Origin: Patescibacteria group bacterium
GTDB lineage: Bacteria > Patescibacteriota > Minisyncoccia > Phycocordibacterales > UBA5272
DNA: 64,000 nt
NCBI GenBank assembly: GCA_030916895.1
Contig: JAUPVR010000001.1
Location: 1,887 to 65,886, forward strand
Direction: 5' to 3'
The notes under the pieces: generated by a model
Databases searched by the model: none
Told to the model about the DNA's origin: nothing
What the model saw: the letters and a program-made list of their open reading frames with translations, nothing else
Shown: one piece after another, positions 7,508-30,680 of the stretch
Numbering within the stretch: position 1 is the first letter of the stretch
Layout: every line of letters starts with the position of its first letter
Position numbers and translations under genes: made by a program

Positions 7508-7852
7508 ATGTGGCACATCATTTTGCGTATTATTGCAGTTCTCGTCACAAGCTACGTTACTCATGTTGGCGTTCCTCTTACGCTGACGGTAAATACCCTA
7601 TGGATAGCATTTCTCGTAACTATTGTTCTTGCTATTATCAATCATACTATTAAGCCACTCTTAACGATTGTTCTCATTCCGATTCATTTCGCGACACTTG
7701 GCCTCTCATCACTGTTTGTTAACGGAGCAATGATCCTCCTTGCGAGTTATCTTATTCCAGGATTTATTATTCCAAGTATTCTTATGGGGTTCTGGTTTTC
7801 TATCGTGCTTTCTATCGTGAATTGGGTGCTTCATATCTTTGAAAAAGATTAA
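7508..7852 (+). CDS. small integral membrane protein (DUF360/holin-IV-like)
   Basis: 114 aa with 3-4 predicted TM helices. Confidence 0.45.
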   Translation: MWHIILRIIAVLVTSYVTHVGVPLTLTVNTLWIAFLVTIVLAIINHTIKPLLTIVLIPIHFATLGLSSLFVNGAMILLASYLIPGFIIPSILMGFWFSIVLSIVNWVLHIFEKD

Positions 7853-7910
7853 TTGTTAAAGGTTTTTTTACTGTTTTGCACTTATCGTGAGCATGGTAGA
7901 ATAGAGGTGT

Positions 7911-9035
7911 ATGTCACTAGTCTTAGGAATTTTAGGGAGTCTTGTAGGAATTATAATTATTGTGGGTATTATCACTTTGGCCTATGGAGTAATTTCTGGC
8001 GGTCAAACTAATCATCTTATGGAAAATAAAATAAAGGCACTTGATGTGTTTGTGTACTTGGGAATTTTCATAACCCTTGTTGTTTCTGTGACGAATCTTT
8101 TACAAATTGTGTTTGAGGCAATTAATCGTAAATTTATTGACCTACTTGACTACCAGGGGTATGTCGATATGTACAGCAGTGAGATGCGCTTTGCCATTGC
8201 TTCACTTTTTGTTGTCTATCCAATCTATGTTGGTCTTTCATGGTTTGTCGCGAAAGATATTGTAAAGAATCCGTATAAGAATGATTTGAAGATTCGTAAA
8301 ATAATGATTTACGTTGCGCTCTTCGTTACGCTCTGTACGCTTGTCGGAACGCTCGTTTCTATCATTTACACTTATTTGGGTGGTGAACTTTCGGTTCGTT
8401 TTGGTTTGAAGGCTGTCGCTGTATTTGCTGTTTCGCTTACGGTGTTTGGGTACTACCTATTCTCACTTAAGCGTGATTATTCAAAGAAAACGTATGTACC
8501 ACACGTATTTACAATAGGCGTTACGCTCGCAGTTCTCGCTTCACTTATTTGGAGCATCTCAATTATTGGTACACCTGGACAGATGCGTGCAAAGCGCATT
8601 GATAACACCCGCCTCTCTGATGTTTCCCGTATTCAGCAGGAGGTTTATGGTCATTACCAGCAGACCGATAAAATTCCAGACACACTTTCTGAACTTAACA
8701 ATGCTTTTCAGGGGTACGTTGTTCCTGTAGACCCTGTTACGAAAGAGGAGTACGAATATAGGGTTATCCAGCAGCCAATTACACGCATGAATTACTCAAC
8801 AAATGAGAAGGAGATGGTAACGAATGCTATATTTGAAATTTGTGCGACGTTTGATACCAAGCGGGAAGTTGATTCTCGTGGTATGTCAGTTTCAGGTAAG
8901 GGAGGCGCTACGGATGCGATGTACTTCGTAACGAATCAGTTCTATGAGGGAGATCAGTCACCATTTTGGAATCACGATATAGGAAAGGTATGTTTCAAGC
9001 GTATTATTACGCCACAGATGTACTACGGGAGATAG
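7911..9035 (+). CDS. hypothetical multi-pass membrane protein
   Basis: N-terminal TM helices followed by a soluble C-terminal domain; no recognisable motif. Confidence 0.5.
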   Translation: MSLVLGILGSLVGIIIIVGIITLAYGVISGGQTNHLMENKIKALDVFVYLGIFITLVVSVTNLLQIVFEAINRKFIDLLDYQGYVDMYSSEMRFAIASLFVVYPIYVGLSWFVAKDIVKNPYKNDLKIRKIMIYVALFVTLCTLVGTLVSIIYTYLGGELSVRFGLKAVAVFAVSLTVFGYYLFSLKRDYSKKTYVPHVFTIGVTLAVLASLIWSISIIGTPGQMRAKRIDNTRLSDVSRIQQEVYGHYQQTDKIPDTLSELNNAFQGYVVPVDPVTKEEYEYRVIQQPITRMNYSTNEKEMVTNAIFEICATFDTKREVDSRGMSVSGKGGATDAMYFVTNQFYEGDQSPFWNHDIGKVCFKRIITPQMYYGR

Positions 9036-24456: not shown

Positions 24457-24549
24457 TTCAGTATTCTACCACGGCACACGCAAAACGTGTTGATATCTAT
24501 CCCTTTTTTAGAAAAAATAAAGAACTGCCATGATACACTTGATACACGT

Positions 24550-26775
24550 ATGCGCTTGTCTCATATCACTATTTCAGGCTTTAAATCATTTGCTAAGAAG
24601 ACCACAATTGATGTTACTCACCAAGTAACGGGGGTTGTTGGTCCAAATGGTTCTGGCAAATCAAACGTTGCCGAGGCGATTCGTTTCGTGCTTGGTGAAC
24701 AATCAATGAAATCAATGCGCGGAAAGTTAGGATCTGATCTCATCTTTAAAGGCTCTGAGCACTTAAGCCCACTTTCACGCGCCTCGGTGACGATGGTTAT
24801 TGATAATCGCGATAAGGTTGATACAACACATGCAAGTCAGGAACTTGCACCATATCTTGTGTACGATCAACTTACACTTGCACGTGTTATCTACGCTGAT
24901 GGTACGAGTGACTACACGTTAAACGACGCAAAGGTACGCTTAAAAGATGTGCAAGAACTTTTGGCGTTTGCGGGTATCGGTGGAAGTAACCACACAATCA
25001 TTAATCAAGGTGAAGCGGATAAAATATTACTTGCGTCTCCACGTGAACGAAAGGAGGCAATTGAAGATGCGCTTGGTTTGCGCGTTTTTCATATTCGTCT
25101 CCATGAGAGCGAGCGAAAACTTGAAAAAGTAAAAGTACACGTGCACGAAGTTGAACTCTTGCGTAAAGAAGTTGCCCCACACTTGATTCACTTAAAGAGG
25201 CAGGTTGATAAATTGGAATCAAAAGAAAAAGAAAGACAATTATTACATAGATTGCTTACAGCGTACTTTGTTCGTGAAGAAAGAGAGCTTGCAATTTTGA
25301 ATGAAAAGATTCACGAAGCGGGTACATCGCATTCTCTTTCGCTTATTACAAACTCGATACACAAAGAACTCGAGGTTCTTAGAGAAAAGAAATCGGAAGT
25401 GCAAACAAATTCGCATCACGAAAAGCATACACTTCAAGCGGAAATTAGAACACTCCTTGAACGACGTGACCAGGTAACCAAAACACTCGGGCGTCTTGAA
25501 GCAGAAAAAAATTATCTTCAAAAAGAACTTGTCAAAGAGGAAGTTGCTACGGATGTTGTTGTGGGTTATGAGATTTTCAGAAAAACAGGAGAAGATGTAA
25601 AACACATCGCACACACAATTAAGGATGCAATTTCAGAGCAACGAGTAGACACGCTTGTTCCTCTTATGCAAACTGTCGACGGATCGGTTCATTTTTTTGA
25701 GTCACATGCAAAAAGTAGAGAAAGTGATAAAGAGTCAATTAAAAATAAATTAATTGAACTTGATGGTGAAATAAAAGCATATGAAGAAAAAGAGGTGGAT
25801 ATGGCAAAGACTGTTAAATCTCTTGAAGAGAAACTTGAATCTGTTAATACTCAAGCAGAAACCGCAATTCATTCTCGTTTTGAAGAAGAAAAAAAGAAAG
25901 TACTTCTTGAAAGCAAGCTTCGTGAACTTGAGAGTATGATTGCGCTACGCAAGCAAGAAGAAGGGGAAGTTGCTTCTCGTAAGGAACGCTTCGATGCACT
26001 GTTGGCAGAGGGTTCGGTGATCGTTGGTCGTGAGGTACTTTCGTATCGTGAGACGACCCCTGAAGAAACGTATATGACAATGGAAAAACCCGCGCTCATG
26101 AAAGCAATTGAACGCTCCAAACTTCGCATTGAAGAAGCAGGGATTCCAAATGCCTCCGAAGTTATTGCTGAGTACAAGACAACCAAAGAACGAGAAGAAT
26201 ATTTAAGTAAGGAACTTGCTGATATTCGTCAAACTGAGGCAAAACTGCTCGAACTTATCAAAGAACTCCAAACTTCTCTTGAGGAGAGATTTAATACTGG
26301 TATCAAACGAATCTCGGAGATCTTTACTGATTTTTTTGCAGAAGTATTTCCTAATGGTAAAGGTAAACTTGTACTCATTAATATGACACGTACCGACGAA
26401 GATGGTAACACCATCACTGAACAGGGGGTTGATATCGATGTCTCGCTTCCACATAAAAAAGTAAAAGAGATACAAATGTTTTCTGGTGGCGAACGTGCGC
26501 TTACCTCTATTGCACTTTTGTTTGCAATGTCGTCACTCACTCCTCCACCGTTTATGGTGCTTGATGAAACAGATGCACCGCTGGATGAATCAAATGCACG
26601 AAAGTATGGTTCGATGCTTTCTCGTCTTGCTGAGAAGAGCAAACTTTTGGTAATTACACACAACCGCGAAACGATGAATCACTGCGACATGCTCTATGGG
26701 GTGACCATTGGTGTTGATGGTTCAAGTCGTTTGCTTTCAATTAATTTTAAAGAAGCCGAAGGGTTTGCGAGGTAG
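24550..26775 (+). CDS. smc: SMC-family ATPase (short chromosome-segregation-like protein)
   Basis: Walker A GPNGSGKSN, long coiled coils, C-terminal FSGGERALTSIALLFA signature and D-loop; start taken at MRLSHITISGF. Confidence 0.75.
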   Translation: MRLSHITISGFKSFAKKTTIDVTHQVTGVVGPNGSGKSNVAEAIRFVLGEQSMKSMRGKLGSDLIFKGSEHLSPLSRASVTMVIDNRDKVDTTHASQELAPYLVYDQLTLARVIYADGTSDYTLNDAKVRLKDVQELLAFAGIGGSNHTIINQGEADKILLASPRERKEAIEDALGLRVFHIRLHESERKLEKVKVHVHEVELLRKEVAPHLIHLKRQVDKLESKEKERQLLHRLLTAYFVREERELAILNEKIHEAGTSHSLSLITNSIHKELEVLREKKSEVQTNSHHEKHTLQAEIRTLLERRDQVTKTLGRLEAEKNYLQKELVKEEVATDVVVGYEIFRKTGEDVKHIAHTIKDAISEQRVDTLVPLMQTVDGSVHFFESHAKSRESDKESIKNKLIELDGEIKAYEEKEVDMAKTVKSLEEKLESVNTQAETAIHSRFEEEKKKVLLESKLRELESMIALRKQEEGEVASRKERFDALLAEGSVIVGREVLSYRETTPEETYMTMEKPALMKAIERSKLRIEEAGIPNASEVIAEYKTTKEREEYLSKELADIRQTEAKLLELIKELQTSLEERFNTGIKRISEIFTDFFAEVFPNGKGKLVLINMTRTDEDGNTITEQGVDIDVSLPHKKVKEIQMFSGGERALTSIALLFAMSSLTPPPFMVLDETDAPLDESNARKYGSMLSRLAEKSKLLVITHNRETMNHCDMLYGVTIGVDGSSRLLSINFKEAEGFAR

Positions 26776-26837
26776 TTGATTTTTGAATACAAGAGGTATA
26801 GGATTGCAGGAAACAGTGTCCCCAAAGAGAGGTATTC

Positions 26838-27056
26838 ATGGGAAAAGAATTCTCGCTCATTTCCGAGGAATCACTCGGTAAATGCCCGCGGTGCGATTCG
26901 GGCGAAGTGGTACTGAAAACATTTGCGCGAAAAACTCTCAAGAAAAATGGCCGGCCTCACCATAAGAGAGAGTGCAAGTGTACCCTTTGTTCTTGGAACT
27001 ACGACCCCAGATACTTTGGAAAAACCAAGTTCTATACATGGGGTTCGCGCGCTTAG
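26838..27056 (+). CDS. small zinc-ribbon protein (C-x2-C ... C-x-C-x2-C)
   Basis: 72 aa, SD agagagg, own terminator; convergent with the RT gene. Confidence 0.55.
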   Translation: MGKEFSLISEESLGKCPRCDSGEVVLKTFARKTLKKNGRPHHKRECKCTLCSWNYDPRYFGKTKFYTWGSRA

Positions 27057-27066
27057 GCGCGTTTTC
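27040..27066. terminator. shared bidirectional terminator between the Zn-ribbon gene and the RT
   Basis: gcgcgc tta ggcgcg followed by T-run on the plus strand; sits about 45 nt after the RT stop on the minus strand. Confidence 0.7.
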
Positions 27067-27111
27067 TTTTTATACAAAAACGGCGCCAAGATTTTTCCAA
27101 AAAGGATAGTC

Positions 27112-28242
27112 TTAGCGCCGAAGGGGCTTGTGCCGATTTTTGTAACGCTTCCTATATTCGTGCGAGGCGTGCTTGAATTCTTTGCAGAAATTGAGCGTCC
27201 TCTTATCGGTTTCGGTTGGCGTTACGAGCCGTAGGTAGTGAAGGAACTCTGCAATCATCCCGCGTATCACTTCTGGTGAATCGTTCCACGCAGGTGTTGC
27301 AAGGTAGCTTTTCATCACACCTTCGATACGGTCCCGCTTCCACCTAGGGAAACGAAGAACAGCTTTATCACCCGTATTTTCAATTCCCACCTTGGTGACA
27401 AATACCGTACCATGCTTCACATCAAGAACTCGTGACTTCCGGTGATTAACCGAGAAACCAGCGTCATTGATGAGGCTCCGTATTTCTCGCCGAAGATCGC
27501 TCCCGATAATGATGTCGCGGGAAAAAACCAAATCATCAACATAGCGAGTGTAGGTTATTGTTCGTTCGGTGTTTTCCTTAGACCCTTTTCTTTCACACAG
27601 AGCGCGAAGTTTGCTATCAAGAAAGACTTCGCAGTAAAGGTTAAGGAGACGTGGAGACATCGGTCCACCAATGGCGAGTCCGATGTTATTTGGTCCTGAA
27701 AAAGCAATTCGTACAAACTCTCGCAAGGGTAAGTACAGCTTGTCGGTTGTCATCATTTCCTGTGCAAGAGGATTTGAGGCGAACCAGCGAAGGGAATACC
27801 CAGAATCAAGCTGATACTTTCCGTAGTGAAAGATGAGGACGAGAAGCTTTGTCAGGCGGTCAAGGTCGACACTTGGATATGCGTGCACGAAGTCGGTGAT
27901 GTAGAAAAACCGATGACCTTTGTGCTTTTCAGCATTTACGAAGTGGTTAGATGATGGAACCGACCCCGTGGAAGACGGGAGTTTGCGCAGGGTGTAGGTT
28001 TCCCCGGTCCCATACACTTCACCGATTAGGTTGATTGCTTCATGTAGGTGTCGTTCGAAAACCGCATGAACTCTACGCATCGCCTTGTTCGGGGTGCTAA
28101 TGAGTCTTCGCTTGTCACCCACTTTTTTCCACTCTGTGTGGAATAGGGGCAATGTTTGCAAGTTGCTACCCATGAGTACATGCGGGTCGAAATGAAAAAG
28201 CTCCTCTTTTTGCGAAGGAGCCTTTTTTTGCTTTTTTGCCAT
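27112..28242 (-). CDS. reverse transcriptase, retron-type (stand-alone RT domain, about 376 aa)
   Basis: RT motifs read directly: KKVGDKRRLISTPNKAMRRV (motifs 1/2), ITDFVHAYPSVD (3), LAIGGPMSPRLLNLY (4, QG-x-P-x-SP type), YTRYVDDLVFS (5, compare retron YTRYADDLTFS), VFVTKVGI (VTG-like). SD aaggag sits 6 nt before the MAKKQ start; the 61-codon upstream extension in the ORF track is GC-rich leader, not coding. Confidence 0.85.
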   Translation of the reverse strand: MAKKQKKAPSQKEELFHFDPHVLMGSNLQTLPLFHTEWKKVGDKRRLISTPNKAMRRVHAVFERHLHEAINLIGEVYGTGETYTLRKLPSSTGSVPSSNHFVNAEKHKGHRFFYITDFVHAYPSVDLDRLTKLLVLIFHYGKYQLDSGYSLRWFASNPLAQEMMTTDKLYLPLREFVRIAFSGPNNIGLAIGGPMSPRLLNLYCEVFLDSKLRALCERKGSKENTERTITYTRYVDDLVFSRDIIIGSDLRREIRSLINDAGFSVNHRKSRVLDVKHGTVFVTKVGIENTGDKAVLRFPRWKRDRIEGVMKSYLATPAWNDSPEVIRGMIAEFLHYLRLVTPTETDKRTLNFCKEFKHASHEYRKRYKNRHKPLRR

Positions 28243-28306
28243 CGGAAGCTCCTTTGGTTTATGGGGTGATATTACAAATGAACATTTAAGTATTTCCACT
28301 GCTGGC

Positions 28307-28641
28307 GCTGGGGAGCCATGTAGATGCAGGGCAACACCCGAAGGTGCGTAACCAAAGCAGTGAACCGCGGGCCTGCGGCCGATCTCTCCTCCCGACCGAC
28401 TTCCGGCTGTTCGCGTGAATCGCACATGGCATGAACTTGCGATGACGCAGTCTGCTCGGACAGTGCCGAGGCTTCGCGGGCATAGCTTGCGCTATGAGGG
28501 AGGGCAACCCTCCCTTCCTGTCGCCAGACCTTACATCAAGAGAAAATTCCTCAAGAGAAGGCTTACTACGGCAGGATTTTGCTTAGGCACAACTACTTCT
28601 GTAATGCAGGATCTTGCACCCACAAGGTTTCGCTCCCCAGC
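28307..28641 (-). ncRNA. candidate structured ncRNA upstream of the RT (msr/msd-like or DRT-template-like)
   Basis: About 58-60% GC against a ~38% background; bracketed by 10-nt inverted repeats gctggggagc (28307-28316) and gctccccagc (28632-28641); internal hairpins include gggaggg-caa-ccctccc and a UUCG tetraloop stem; ends about 65 nt upstream of the RT start on the same strand. Confidence 0.45.
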
Positions 28642-28739
28642 TTACCCTTGATCCGAGTACCATCCTAGCACGCTTGTACGCAAAGTAAATACGAAGATTT
28701 ATCGAAAACTGTGTCATGTTTATGCTATAGTAGAGCGAT

Positions 28740-30680
28740 ATGCAACGGCTTTATACGGGAACAATTAGTTTAAACTCTAAAAAAGATGGCTATGTGCGTG
28801 TGCACGACCTTGAAAAAGAAGGCTCTATTTTTGTTGACCATAGCCACTTAAACACCGCACTTCACCACGACTCAGTTGAAGTTGAATTACTCGGTAAAAA
28901 GAAAAATGTTAAAGGAGAAGATGAGCTCTACGGAAAAATTGCACGCGTGATTGAGCGAAGTAAAAAGGGATACGCTGGTATCTTGGAAGAAGATCACGGT
29001 ATGTACTTTTTGGTGCCGGATGATAGGCGGATGTATACCGATATCGTTATTGATAAGGAAAAGTTAGATGGTGGAAAAGTGGGCGACAAGATCATTGCTT
29101 CAATTGATGAATGGAACGATCACAAGAAATCACCACGTGGGGCTGTTGTTAAGGTTCTTGGTCACCCAGGAGACAATGATGCTGAAATGCTTGCGTATGC
29201 GTATGAGCGTGGTTTTAGCGATGAGCACAATGAAGCGGTCCTTGAAGAGGCACATGGAATCAAAGCGCGCGGGATACGTGAAGAAGACAAAAAAGATAGA
29301 CGCGATTTTCGTGGTGTGGGAACATTTACTATCGACCCATTTGATGCAAAAGATTTTGATGATGCTTTATCGTTTAAGAAATTAGATAACGGCCACTATG
29401 AAGTTGGTATTCATATTGCTGATGTGTCGCACTATGTTTTACCAGGAATGCATTTGGATGAGGAGGGCATCGCGCGAGAGACATCCGTGTACCTGGTGGA
29501 TAGGTGTATTCCAATGCTTCCTGAGGTGCTTTCAAATGATTTGTGTTCTTTGGTACAAGGAGAAGATCGTCTTGTTATGAGCGCAGTATTTGAATTAGAC
29601 GACGAAGGGACCATTCATGCGGAGTGGTTTGGTAAGTCTGTTATTCATTCAAACAGGCGATATACCTATGAAGATGCACAAAAGGCGATTGACACCGGAA
29701 GTGGAGATTTTGCACAAGAGCTCATTATTTTGAATAATATTGCTAAAAAGCTTACTAAAAAACGATTTGAAAATGGCGCACTTTCGCTTGAAACTGAAGA
29801 GGTTAAATTTAAATTAGATGAAAAAGGTGTTCCGGTTGATGTATATGTAAAAGAACGTATTGATACAAACAAGTTGATTGAGGAGTACATGCTCATGGCA
29901 AACAAGCAGGTGAGTAAGTTTATTACCCTCGAACAAGAAAAAGTAAAAGGCGAAGGGAAGAGTGTCTGTATTTACCGTGTACACGATAAGCCAGATACTG
30001 ATCGTATGCATGAACTCGATTTATATATTCGAGCACTTGGGTACAAGGTGCGATTTATGGACGGACTCATCCCTTCGCAAGATTTGAATGATTTGCTTAA
30101 GAAAATGGGGGATAGACCAGAGAAAGCACTTCTTCAGGTGCACATTACCCGCTCTATGGCAAAAGCAATATATAGTACAAGAAATATTGGTCACTATGGG
30201 TTGGCATTTGATTACTACTCGCACTTTACGTCGCCAATTCGCCGTTACCCAGATGTTTTAACACACCGTTTACTTGAACGAGTACTTAAAAAAGATTTTC
30301 CGAAAGATGAAGAACGAGGGTGGTATGAAAGTCTATGTGCGCAGGCGTCGCGTCGTGAGAAAGAAGCCGCGGACGCAGAACGTGGAAGTATCAAGTACAA
30401 ACAAGTTGAATACATGTCGTACCGCGTTGGACAGGAATTTGACGGTGTTGTTTCCGGTGTTTCTGAATGGGGAATCTATGTTGAAGAAAAGAAAAGTAAA
30501 TGTGAAGGCATGGTGAAGCTTCGCGATTTAGGGGAAGATTTCTTTAACTACGACCCTCGTGGTTCACGCATTATTGGTGAACGAACAGGTGTTGAATATA
30601 AAATTGGTACACCAGTAAAAATTAAGGTCAAGCAAGCTAACCTAGACCTACGAATCATCGACTATACACTCATGGCGTAG
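28740..30680 (+). CDS. rnr: ribonuclease R (RNB family)
   Basis: Cold-shock/OB N-terminal domain, RNB catalytic domain, S1 C-terminal domain. Confidence 0.85.
   Translation: MQRLYTGTISLNSKKDGYVRVHDLEKEGSIFVDHSHLNTALHHDSVEVELLGKKKNVKGEDELYGKIARVIERSKKGYAGILEEDHGMYFLVPDDRRMYTDIVIDKEKLDGGKVGDKIIASIDEWNDHKKSPRGAVVKVLGHPGDNDAEMLAYAYERGFSDEHNEAVLEEAHGIKARGIREEDKKDRRDFRGVGTFTIDPFDAKDFDDALSFKKLDNGHYEVGIHIADVSHYVLPGMHLDEEGIARETSVYLVDRCIPMLPEVLSNDLCSLVQGEDRLVMSAVFELDDEGTIHAEWFGKSVIHSNRRYTYEDAQKAIDTGSGDFAQELIILNNIAKKLTKKRFENGALSLETEEVKFKLDEKGVPVDVYVKERIDTNKLIEEYMLMANKQVSKFITLEQEKVKGEGKSVCIYRVHDKPDTDRMHELDLYIRALGYKVRFMDGLIPSQDLNDLLKKMGDRPEKALLQVHITRSMAKAIYSTRNIGHYGLAFDYYSHFTSPIRRYPDVLTHRLLERVLKKDFPKDEERGWYESLCAQASRREKEAADAERGSIKYKQVEYMSYRVGQEFDGVVSGVSEWGIYVEEKKSKCEGMVKLRDLGEDFFNYDPRGSRIIGERTGVEYKIGTPVKIKVKQANLDLRIIDYTLMA

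Follow-up and report, generated by a model that had tools for sequence, protein, structure and literature searches.

A retron-like reverse transcriptase with a large structured upstream RNA and no linked effector gene in Patescibacteria

The stretch analysed here, called the window, comprises 64,000 nucleotides (nt) of a Patescibacteria group bacterium (assembly GCA_030916895.1, contig JAUPVR010000001.1, positions 1,887 to 65,886 of the forward strand; GTDB lineage Bacteria; Patescibacteriota; Minisyncoccia; Phycocordibacterales; UBA5272), and carries on its minus strand a gene for a reverse transcriptase (RT) of 376 residues (27112–28242), preceded on the same strand by a structured non-coding RNA (ncRNA) of about 350 nt (28307–28655). 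The two are best read, with a confidence slightly above even, as a two-component retron-like retroelement in which a variable hairpin domain of the ncRNA is copied into single-stranded DNA. Since the RT and the ncRNA hold the same housekeeping position in related genomes, the element is regarded as a long-resident two-part variant of the retrons. Loci were compared, and the ncRNA aligned, on 20 distinct related loci including the window (L094 is a second fetch of contig L086 and not a separate genome, and L001 duplicates L082), and the invariance of RT residues was judged on 36 family sequences.

The RT contains the motifs RLISTPN, NAEKH (region X), FFYITD (motif A), GGPMSP..NLYCE (in full GLAIGGPMSP..NLYCE), YVDD (within YTRYVDDLVFS) and VTK.VG (FVTKVG), followed by a three-helix C-terminal region, and neither the family scans nor the structure model revealed an extra, maturase or endonuclease domain. 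All motifs cited by an earlier reading of the DNA made from the letters alone (the sequence-only reading), which had called the protein a stand-alone retron-type RT, are present, and in NCBIfam and PADLOC the retron models come out on top, in keeping with that call, though far below their cutoffs. Pfam RVT_1 matches with E=3e-10. The top NCBIfam match is retron_St85_RT (E=9e-19, 67.8 bits against a cutoff of 235), with lower matches to group II RTs (9e-7), Drt2 (4e-4) and Drt3a (2e-3), where DRT stands for defence-associated reverse transcriptase. The group II model TIGR04416 gives 28.3 bits against a cutoff of 300, the Drt2 equivalog NF041746 gives 19.8 bits against 390, and Drt3a 17.6 bits. 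In PADLOC the 25 best-matching models, with E of about 1e-16, all describe retron RTs, the first at 58.8 bits, and no DRT or UG model is found among them although PADLOC includes such models. When the family profile was run against PDB sequences the RTs of retrons Ec78, Ec83, Ec86 and Ec67 led with about 1e-12, the matches covering the palm and thumb only. An AlphaFold2 model built from 36 homologues (predicted local distance difference test score 86.4, predicted template modelling score 0.82) had retron RTs as its first 18 matches in Foldseek, with fold-match figures of 20.7 for Ec86 RT, 20.5 for Eco7 RT, 20.2 for Ec67 RT and 19.7 for Eco8 RT, compared to 18.6 for DRT2 RT, 17.4 for the RT of a diversity-generating retroelement (DGR), 15.3 for a group II intron RT and about 11 for DRT9, AbiK and Abi-P2.

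Retron RTs are described as carrying the signature NAXXH in region X, between RT2 and RT3, plus a VTG triplet, the G of which is described as the most conserved residue (PMC7736814). The first signature is found as NAEKH at residues 103–107, between RLISTPN and FFYITD. The family keeps N103 and H107 without exception, and likewise the catalytic D117, D236 and D237 and many residues of the palm and fingers. The enzyme has an intact catalytic core and is under purifying selection. The second signature is altered, the Ec78 sequence HVTGITINN aligning with FVTKVGIEN, and in the family consensus of motif 7, VTK.VG(L), the V and T are kept while the aligned G is replaced by K or Q and a conserved G follows two residues on. 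Because retron matches lead, the cutoffs are missed, NAXXH is kept and VTG reads VTK, the RT is called retron-like here and placed outside all of the curated retron types.

In all 20 loci the RT gene is preceded by 450–550 nt free of called genes. The alignment of this region gives the following order: the 5' strand of a short helix P1, the 5' arm of a closing helix (a1), a bulge of 4–12 nt, an inner arm b1, the 3' strand of P1 and a C-poor linker, and onward three stem-loops (P3, P4 and P5), a GC-rich variable domain, the inner arm b2, the 3' arm of the closing helix (a2), a spacer of 55–75 nt, the Shine-Dalgarno sequence and the ATG. All coordinates of the ncRNA are on the minus strand. A promoter is found at 28662–28689, with the extended -10 region TGCTAGGAT at 28670–28662 and a -35-like TTTACT at 28689–28684, which a generic promoter scan missed because only 8 of the 12 consensus positions are matched. 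An extended -10 region of the form TGnTAnnnT ends 6–7 nt before the first G of P1 (GGAUC) in 19 of the 20 loci, and from this spacing the 5' end of the RNA is predicted at about 28656–28655. The ncRNA, taken from this predicted end to the end of a2, probably makes up the 5' portion of the RT mRNA.

The ends of the ncRNA are held together by the closing helix, as is expected of a retron transcript. In the window a1 (28632–28641, GCUGGGGAGC) pairs with a2 (28307–28316, GCUCCCCAGC), located 315 nt downstream, and over the 20 loci this 10-bp helix is 99% paired with compensatory changes in 9 of its 10 pairs, and it is present in every single-sequence fold. P1, at the extreme 5' end, is formed by GGAUC (28650–28654) and GAUCC (28609–28613), and is 96.8% paired with two compensatory positions, seen as GGAUU/AAUCC in L095 and L108 and as GGAC/GUCC in L096, while GGGA/UCCC can be seen by eye in L081. 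Since P1 crosses a1/a2, it is a pseudoknot or else an alternative state. The closing helix is tentatively extended inwards by b1 (28615–28623, GUGGGUGCA), with 8 bulged nt on the 5' side between it and a1, and b2 (28320–28328, UGCAUCUAC), 3 nt upstream of a2. RNAduplex finds a b1/b2 helix of 7–12 bp at most 1 nt from a2, with a 5'-side bulge of 4–12 nt, in 17 of the 20 loci, and the sequences vary between loci and subclades (UCAUUUGC/GCAAAUGA, CGACGUAU/GAUACGUUG and CAUGUCAGA/UCUGACAUG). In the window the best RNAduplex pairing is a different one, and the register given above, read by eye in analogy with the other loci, is tentative and the least certain part of the ncRNA.

Three stem-loops form the conserved core of the ncRNA (28482–28581). 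P3 is a two-part stem, P3a pairing 28575–28569 with 28523–28517 and P3b pairing 28562–28559 with 28531–28528, and holds the motifs AUAGUAAGCC and UAUGGUG in its internal loop. P4 pairs 28514–28508 with 28504–28498 (GGGAG/CUCCC), and P5, starting with CAUAGCG, pairs 28496–28491 with 28486–28481 around a GCAA loop. Each has 5–11 bp, short stem-loops being a feature of retron RNAs too; P3a, P3b and P4 are 92.7, 80 and 92% paired respectively, with compensatory changes in all three, and P5 is capped by GCAA in the window. The conserved unpaired motifs of the core are (C/G)AUAGUAAGCC, UAUGG(U/C)G and CAUAGCG.

The named structure as a whole has 93.7% of its cells paired compared to 82.1% in column shuffles, compensatory changes in 21 of 31 pairs and a covariation score of 0.466 compared to 0.247, and for pairing, compensatory count and score alike none of 500 shuffles reaches the observed value. 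When partners were slid by 1–3 columns only 40–53% of the cells were paired. RNAalifold recovers a1/a2, P3 and P4 independently. The minimum free energy (MFE) of the window ncRNA at the boundaries defined by the family is -146.2 kcal/mol (z=-3.18), and 1 of 100 dinucleotide shuffles folds as well, while the upstream region folded at loose boundaries is unremarkable (z=-1.57). The Saccharimonadia relative L006, with 30% RT identity, has the same architecture with a long closing helix and z=-3.15. A permissive Rfam scan of 26000–29500 and a scan of the whole window at gathering thresholds returned four tRNAs and no Rfam family for this RNA.

A covariance model (R1) of the P3–P5 core, with 84 positions and built from 17 sequences, finds the window with 78.9 bits (E=3e-18) as its sole match in 64 kb. 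At E up to 1 it gives 19 matches, 18 of them in family loci at 68–86 bits (the 17 training sequences and L001) and the nineteenth, L104, being marginal (E=0.28), and there is no match in 74 loci of other retron-type RTs. On these matches the core is specific to this RT family. The structured RNA on the RT strand that the sequence-only reading had proposed is thus borne out, both by covariation and by a core of its own, and it folds better than shuffled controls once its limits are taken from the family. The subclade of L004, L088 and L104, together with L006, keeps the closing helix and has a divergent core missed by R1.

The linker between P1 and P3 (28608–28576 in the window; L085:4646–4718; also L003, L002, L090 and L095) is C-poor with repeated GUA(G/A). 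GUA occurs 47 times in 733 nt of linker, about 2.7 times the expectation from base composition, with up to eight copies in L085, and the repeats are found in loci with long linkers and are absent from short ones. The core motifs CAUAGUAAGCC and CAUAGCG share a UAG element with these repeats.

Past P5 lies the GC-rich variable domain (28329–28480, 64% GC), which by analogy with the retrons is proposed to correspond to msd and to be the template of the RT. The msd of retrons is a long hairpin of variable sequence (PMC7736814). Across the loci the stretch from P5 to a2 measures 130–260 nt, and past P5 the loci share neither nucleotide nor translated similarity, the close pair L088/L104 excepted. 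The sequences are not alignable. By MFE the shorter loci fold into a single long, imperfect hairpin, and the longer ones branch. Antisense open frames of up to 354 nt are found in the ncRNA and are not significant compared to dinucleotide shuffles, and stop-free frames on either strand are in most loci no longer than in shuffles, exact repeat-junction frames lying outside this test. With open frames of chance length and no translated similarity between loci, a hidden gene of the Neo type was rejected.

Downstream of a2 no consensus structure, regulatory hairpin or terminator is found before the ATG in the 20 loci. The Shine-Dalgarno sequence of the window is AAGGAG (28249–28254), and all 20 loci keep a GGAG before the start codon. 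The ATG at 28242 is the true start of the RT. The frame is open upstream to a GTG at 28425, giving a reading of 437 residues, an extension that is not kept in the relatives and is a by-product of the GC-rich upstream sequence. This frame lacks stops for 83 codons 5' of the ATG (28243–28491), beginning just past the UAG of the P5 motif CAUAG, and comparable in-frame stretches of 58–97 codons occur in 8 of the 19 other loci, about twice the expectation at such GC, without being universal. Over 11 nt the Shine-Dalgarno region of the window (28249–28259, AACCAAAGGAG) shows 91% complementarity to 28350–28360 in the variable domain, which could couple RNA folding to RT translation; the other loci show no conserved equivalent or consensus pairing.

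A word-indexed search gave at least 150 proteins of the RT family, and among the 120 matches listed the identity to the query is 39–70% and the length 300–430 residues, the few named proteins coming from Patescibacteria, Kaiserbacteria, Moranbacteria or Minisyncoccota. When 1.84 billion cluster representatives were searched exhaustively with a profile, about 35 full-length clusters (50% identity) scored 240 bits or more, below which the scores fall to about 190 bits with palm-only matches, and the next-best proteins beyond the family scan as unclassified retron-type RTs. A profile scan of genome contigs was dominated by the generic YxDD motif and gave five family loci; since this motif swamped the scan, the alignment used for metagenomes was shortened to exclude it. 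All family members with an organism label are Patescibacteria except L004, found in a metagenome-assembled genome that bears the label Bdellovibrionales; this may reflect misbinning or a transfer. No member was found in the IMG/VR viral contigs, the INPHARED phages or the PLSDB plasmids.

In 10 genomes, the window included, the RT adjoins the gene for RNase R on the ncRNA side, and in all nine of these where the opposite flank was seen it is occupied by SMC. The order SMC–RT–RNase R can be read from the gene tables of P0008, L081, L086, L089, L106, L107, L108 and the window, and in L101 RNase R lies upstream of the RT and the contig stops before the SMC side. Beyond RNase R follow S16, a KH protein and TrmD in five syntenic loci, S16 and TrmD being uncalled in L106, and past SMC a PAP2 gene is found in all syntenic loci but L106, with atpD/atpC in four of them as well as in the relatives of the window shown. 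The RTs of the syntenic relatives are 42–51% identical where compared, compared to 75–78% for RNase R and 48–68% for SMC relative to the window copies, and the RT thus evolves faster than its neighbours while keeping its position. In L082, L085, L087 and L088 the RT lies in other housekeeping surroundings. Between the RT stop and the SMC stop there are 27–38 nt, with a terminator, in four syntenic loci, about 280 nt in L107, about 540 nt in L108 and 336 nt in the window. The SMC homologue of the window (24487–26775, plus strand) is short, with 762 residues (738–784 in the relatives), and in L106 SMC is followed by scpA (7547–8263), pointing to a condensin that is compact yet genuine in this lineage.

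The GC content of the locus had been taken as a sign of acquisition, against a background put at about 38%. The window has 41.1% GC, the RT gene 47.8%, the upstream RNA 57% and its variable part 64%, while neighbouring host genes in the genomes with RNase R range from 33 to 53%, and the GC of the third codon position in the RT follows the host, from 0.28 to 0.67. Recent acquisition is argued against by the position of the RT beside RNase R and SMC, kept across genomes, and the RT/ncRNA module is a long-term resident and not a shuttling defence cassette. The third codon position of the window RT has 51% GC compared to 32% in SMC and 36% in RNase R (28740–30680), and this excess of 15–17 points is seen in the window, L081 and L086 and is absent in L089, L106 and L107.

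The sequence-only reading had also found no recognisable effector and no co-oriented partner of the RT in the window, and this holds over the family. An all-against-all comparison of open reading frames (ORFs) of at least 50 residues, within 3 kb upstream and about 2.5 kb downstream of the RT, recovered only the RT itself, plus RNase R and SMC in the syntenic subset, and no gene is kept beside the RT across the 20 loci; no fused effector domain is recognisable either. The only neighbour described by that reading, a convergent zinc-ribbon gene of 72 residues said to share the RT terminator, does exist as an ORF in the gap between SMC and the RT (26838–27056, plus strand, CPRC...CTLC in a CxxC..CxxC arrangement), with a terminator-like hairpin of its own at its downstream end (27047–27062, plus strand). 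The family scans did not match this ORF and none of the related loci has a counterpart, and it was consequently placed outside the conserved unit and rejected as a partner of the RT, being either a lineage-specific small gene or spurious. In L108 the same gap carries an unrelated ORF of 84 residues.

The layout of the ncRNA, with paired ends, three stem-loops and a putative long hairpin domain of variable sequence, is that of a retron msr-msd transcript, and since every element of this layout appears to be present, binding, priming and copying by the RT are proposed to proceed as follows. Transcription from the single promoter would place the ncRNA at the 5' end of the RT mRNA, as its leader, and the RT would bind the conserved P3–P5 core. 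Retrons prime from the 2'-OH of a branching G at the end of a1, their product being 2'-5' linked; here the closing helix would bring the 3' end of the variable domain beside a priming nucleotide in the 4–12-nt bulge after a1. The RT would then copy the variable hairpin domain into about 100–200 nt of single-stranded DNA (multicopy single-stranded DNA, or reverse-transcribed DNA, RT-DNA), which would stay attached to the RT–RNA complex. By analogy with retrons the complex of RT-DNA and RT would most likely sense or counter phage, and this is the weakest step of the proposal. As no toxin gene is linked, an effector might be encoded elsewhere, the RT-DNA complex itself might act, or the element might have a host function.

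The retron-like reading thus draws on an RT closest to the retron RTs in sequence and fold, with NAXXH in region X, and on an ncRNA directly upstream on the same strand whose a1/a2 ends enclose three stem-loops and a putative long hairpin domain of variable sequence. Several points weigh against it. The scores are far under the cutoffs of all curated retron types, I–XIII, and motif 7 reads VTK where retrons have VTG. The ncRNA, at about 350 nt, has P1 crossing the closing helix and in b1/b2 a further closing helix, and its putative msd often branches instead of forming one hairpin. The bulge after a1 usually holds a G, but in some loci it holds none and no position is invariant. Unlike retrons, the labelled members are confined to Patescibacteria apart from the one Bdellovibrionales-labelled genome, and they occupy a fixed housekeeping position and not a prophage or defence island. 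No effector gene is recognisable, while about 75% of retrons are reported with an effector (PMC8632793); orphan retrons without effectors are already known, e.g. the Retron-Eco5/Ec107 branch (PMC7736814). Because the VTG triplet and the effector are both missing, the claim made for the element is that it would work like a retron, not that it is a classified retron.

A related possibility, to which we give a minor but real chance, is that the retron-like pair does not guard a toxin as classical retrons do and is a domesticated, vertically inherited RT–ncRNA machine of Patescibacteria with the cDNA itself as functional output. The cDNA would then be a structured single-stranded DNA for housekeeping of the chromosome or nucleic acids, or an effector-free antiviral product, and reverse transcription would be among the core cellular functions that these minimal-genome bacteria have retained. 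An unlikely explanation is a system of the DRT2, DRT9 or DRT10 type, in which RT and ncRNA make repetitive, concatemeric or homopolymeric cDNA that is the effector, which for DRT2 would be a gene made de novo out of the central, least conserved stretch of the ncRNA. Such systems consist, as here, of two components without an effector gene, the ncRNA of DRT2 (280 nt) is of similar size, pseudoknotted, and has its least conserved part as template (PMC12039810), and the crossing of a1/a2 by P1 and a closing helix that would join the ends of the template fit this pattern. Kinship with DRT2 (UG2), suggested by the sequence-only reading, did not hold up in view of the Drt2 and Drt3a scores given above and of the best 25 PADLOC models; the stop-free frames are of shuffle length in most loci, the variable regions share no similarity at the protein level between loci, and no conserved or unusual repeat-spanning ORF was found. 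The UG38 group, class 2 UG/Abi RTs from Parcubacteria and Nealsonbacteria (PMC9226505), resembles the present family as a small stand-alone RT group without known extra domain from metagenome bins of the Candidate Phyla Radiation (CPR), and no other CPR-specific RT group turned up in the literature searched. It differs in belonging to the UG/Abi lineage while retron models match best here, a distinction made by description only.

Rather doubtful, too, is that the RNA is a cis-acting leader or scaffold, for instance a site for autoregulation of RT translation, and not a template, with the RT as a domesticated housekeeping enzyme acting on other RNAs, cellular or foreign. The RNA is contiguous with the RT mRNA, neither a terminator nor a conserved structure separating a2 from the start codon, the RT keeps its place between RNase R and SMC, the family was not found in the viral, phage and plasmid collections, and the Shine-Dalgarno region of the window is complementary to part of the RNA. 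This complementarity is not conserved, however, and a leader has no need of a GC-rich domain of 130–260 nt that keeps its structure while the sequence diverges, and the likeness to msr/msd would be a coincidence. A mobile retroelement or a remnant of one, either a group II intron or a DGR, is effectively refuted. The RT does show weak similarity to group II RTs (E=9e-7), but no group II intron domains were found with Rfam at E up to 1, the group II RT model scores far under its cutoff, and there is no maturase or endonuclease domain. A low-stringency search found no second copy of any part of 28243–28740 in the window, and thus no pair of template and variable repeats as the sequence-only reading had named among its possible refutations, and the DGR and group II folds rank under those of retron RTs. 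On these grounds both element types were rejected, and a mobile-element origin was rejected also on the failure to find the family in IMG/VR, INPHARED and PLSDB, the gene being single-copy and fixed beside RNase R in 10 genomes.

CPR bacteria are known mainly for DGR-type RTs, DGRs being the dominant RT class in their genomes, and work on retrons and DRTs has to our knowledge been limited almost entirely to Proteobacteria and Firmicutes. No paper in the literature searched links retrons to CPR bacteria, in agreement with the novelty claimed from the letters alone. The element looks like a not previously described retron-like RT/ncRNA module of Patescibacteria, effector-less and fixed in the chromosome, whose ncRNA is enlarged. 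The family constitutes a coherent clade that combines a compact retron-like RT of 340–430 residues with an unusually large RNA supported by covariation, without an effector gene, and its adjacency to RNase R in 10 genomes with housekeeping genes of 33–53% GC is unlike a shuttling defence cassette. This opens the question of what purpose a toxin-free retron-type RT/ncRNA pair serves, and whether the RT-DNA itself is functional. As a small two-part system with a long natural template region it is also of interest for tools for RT-DNA production.

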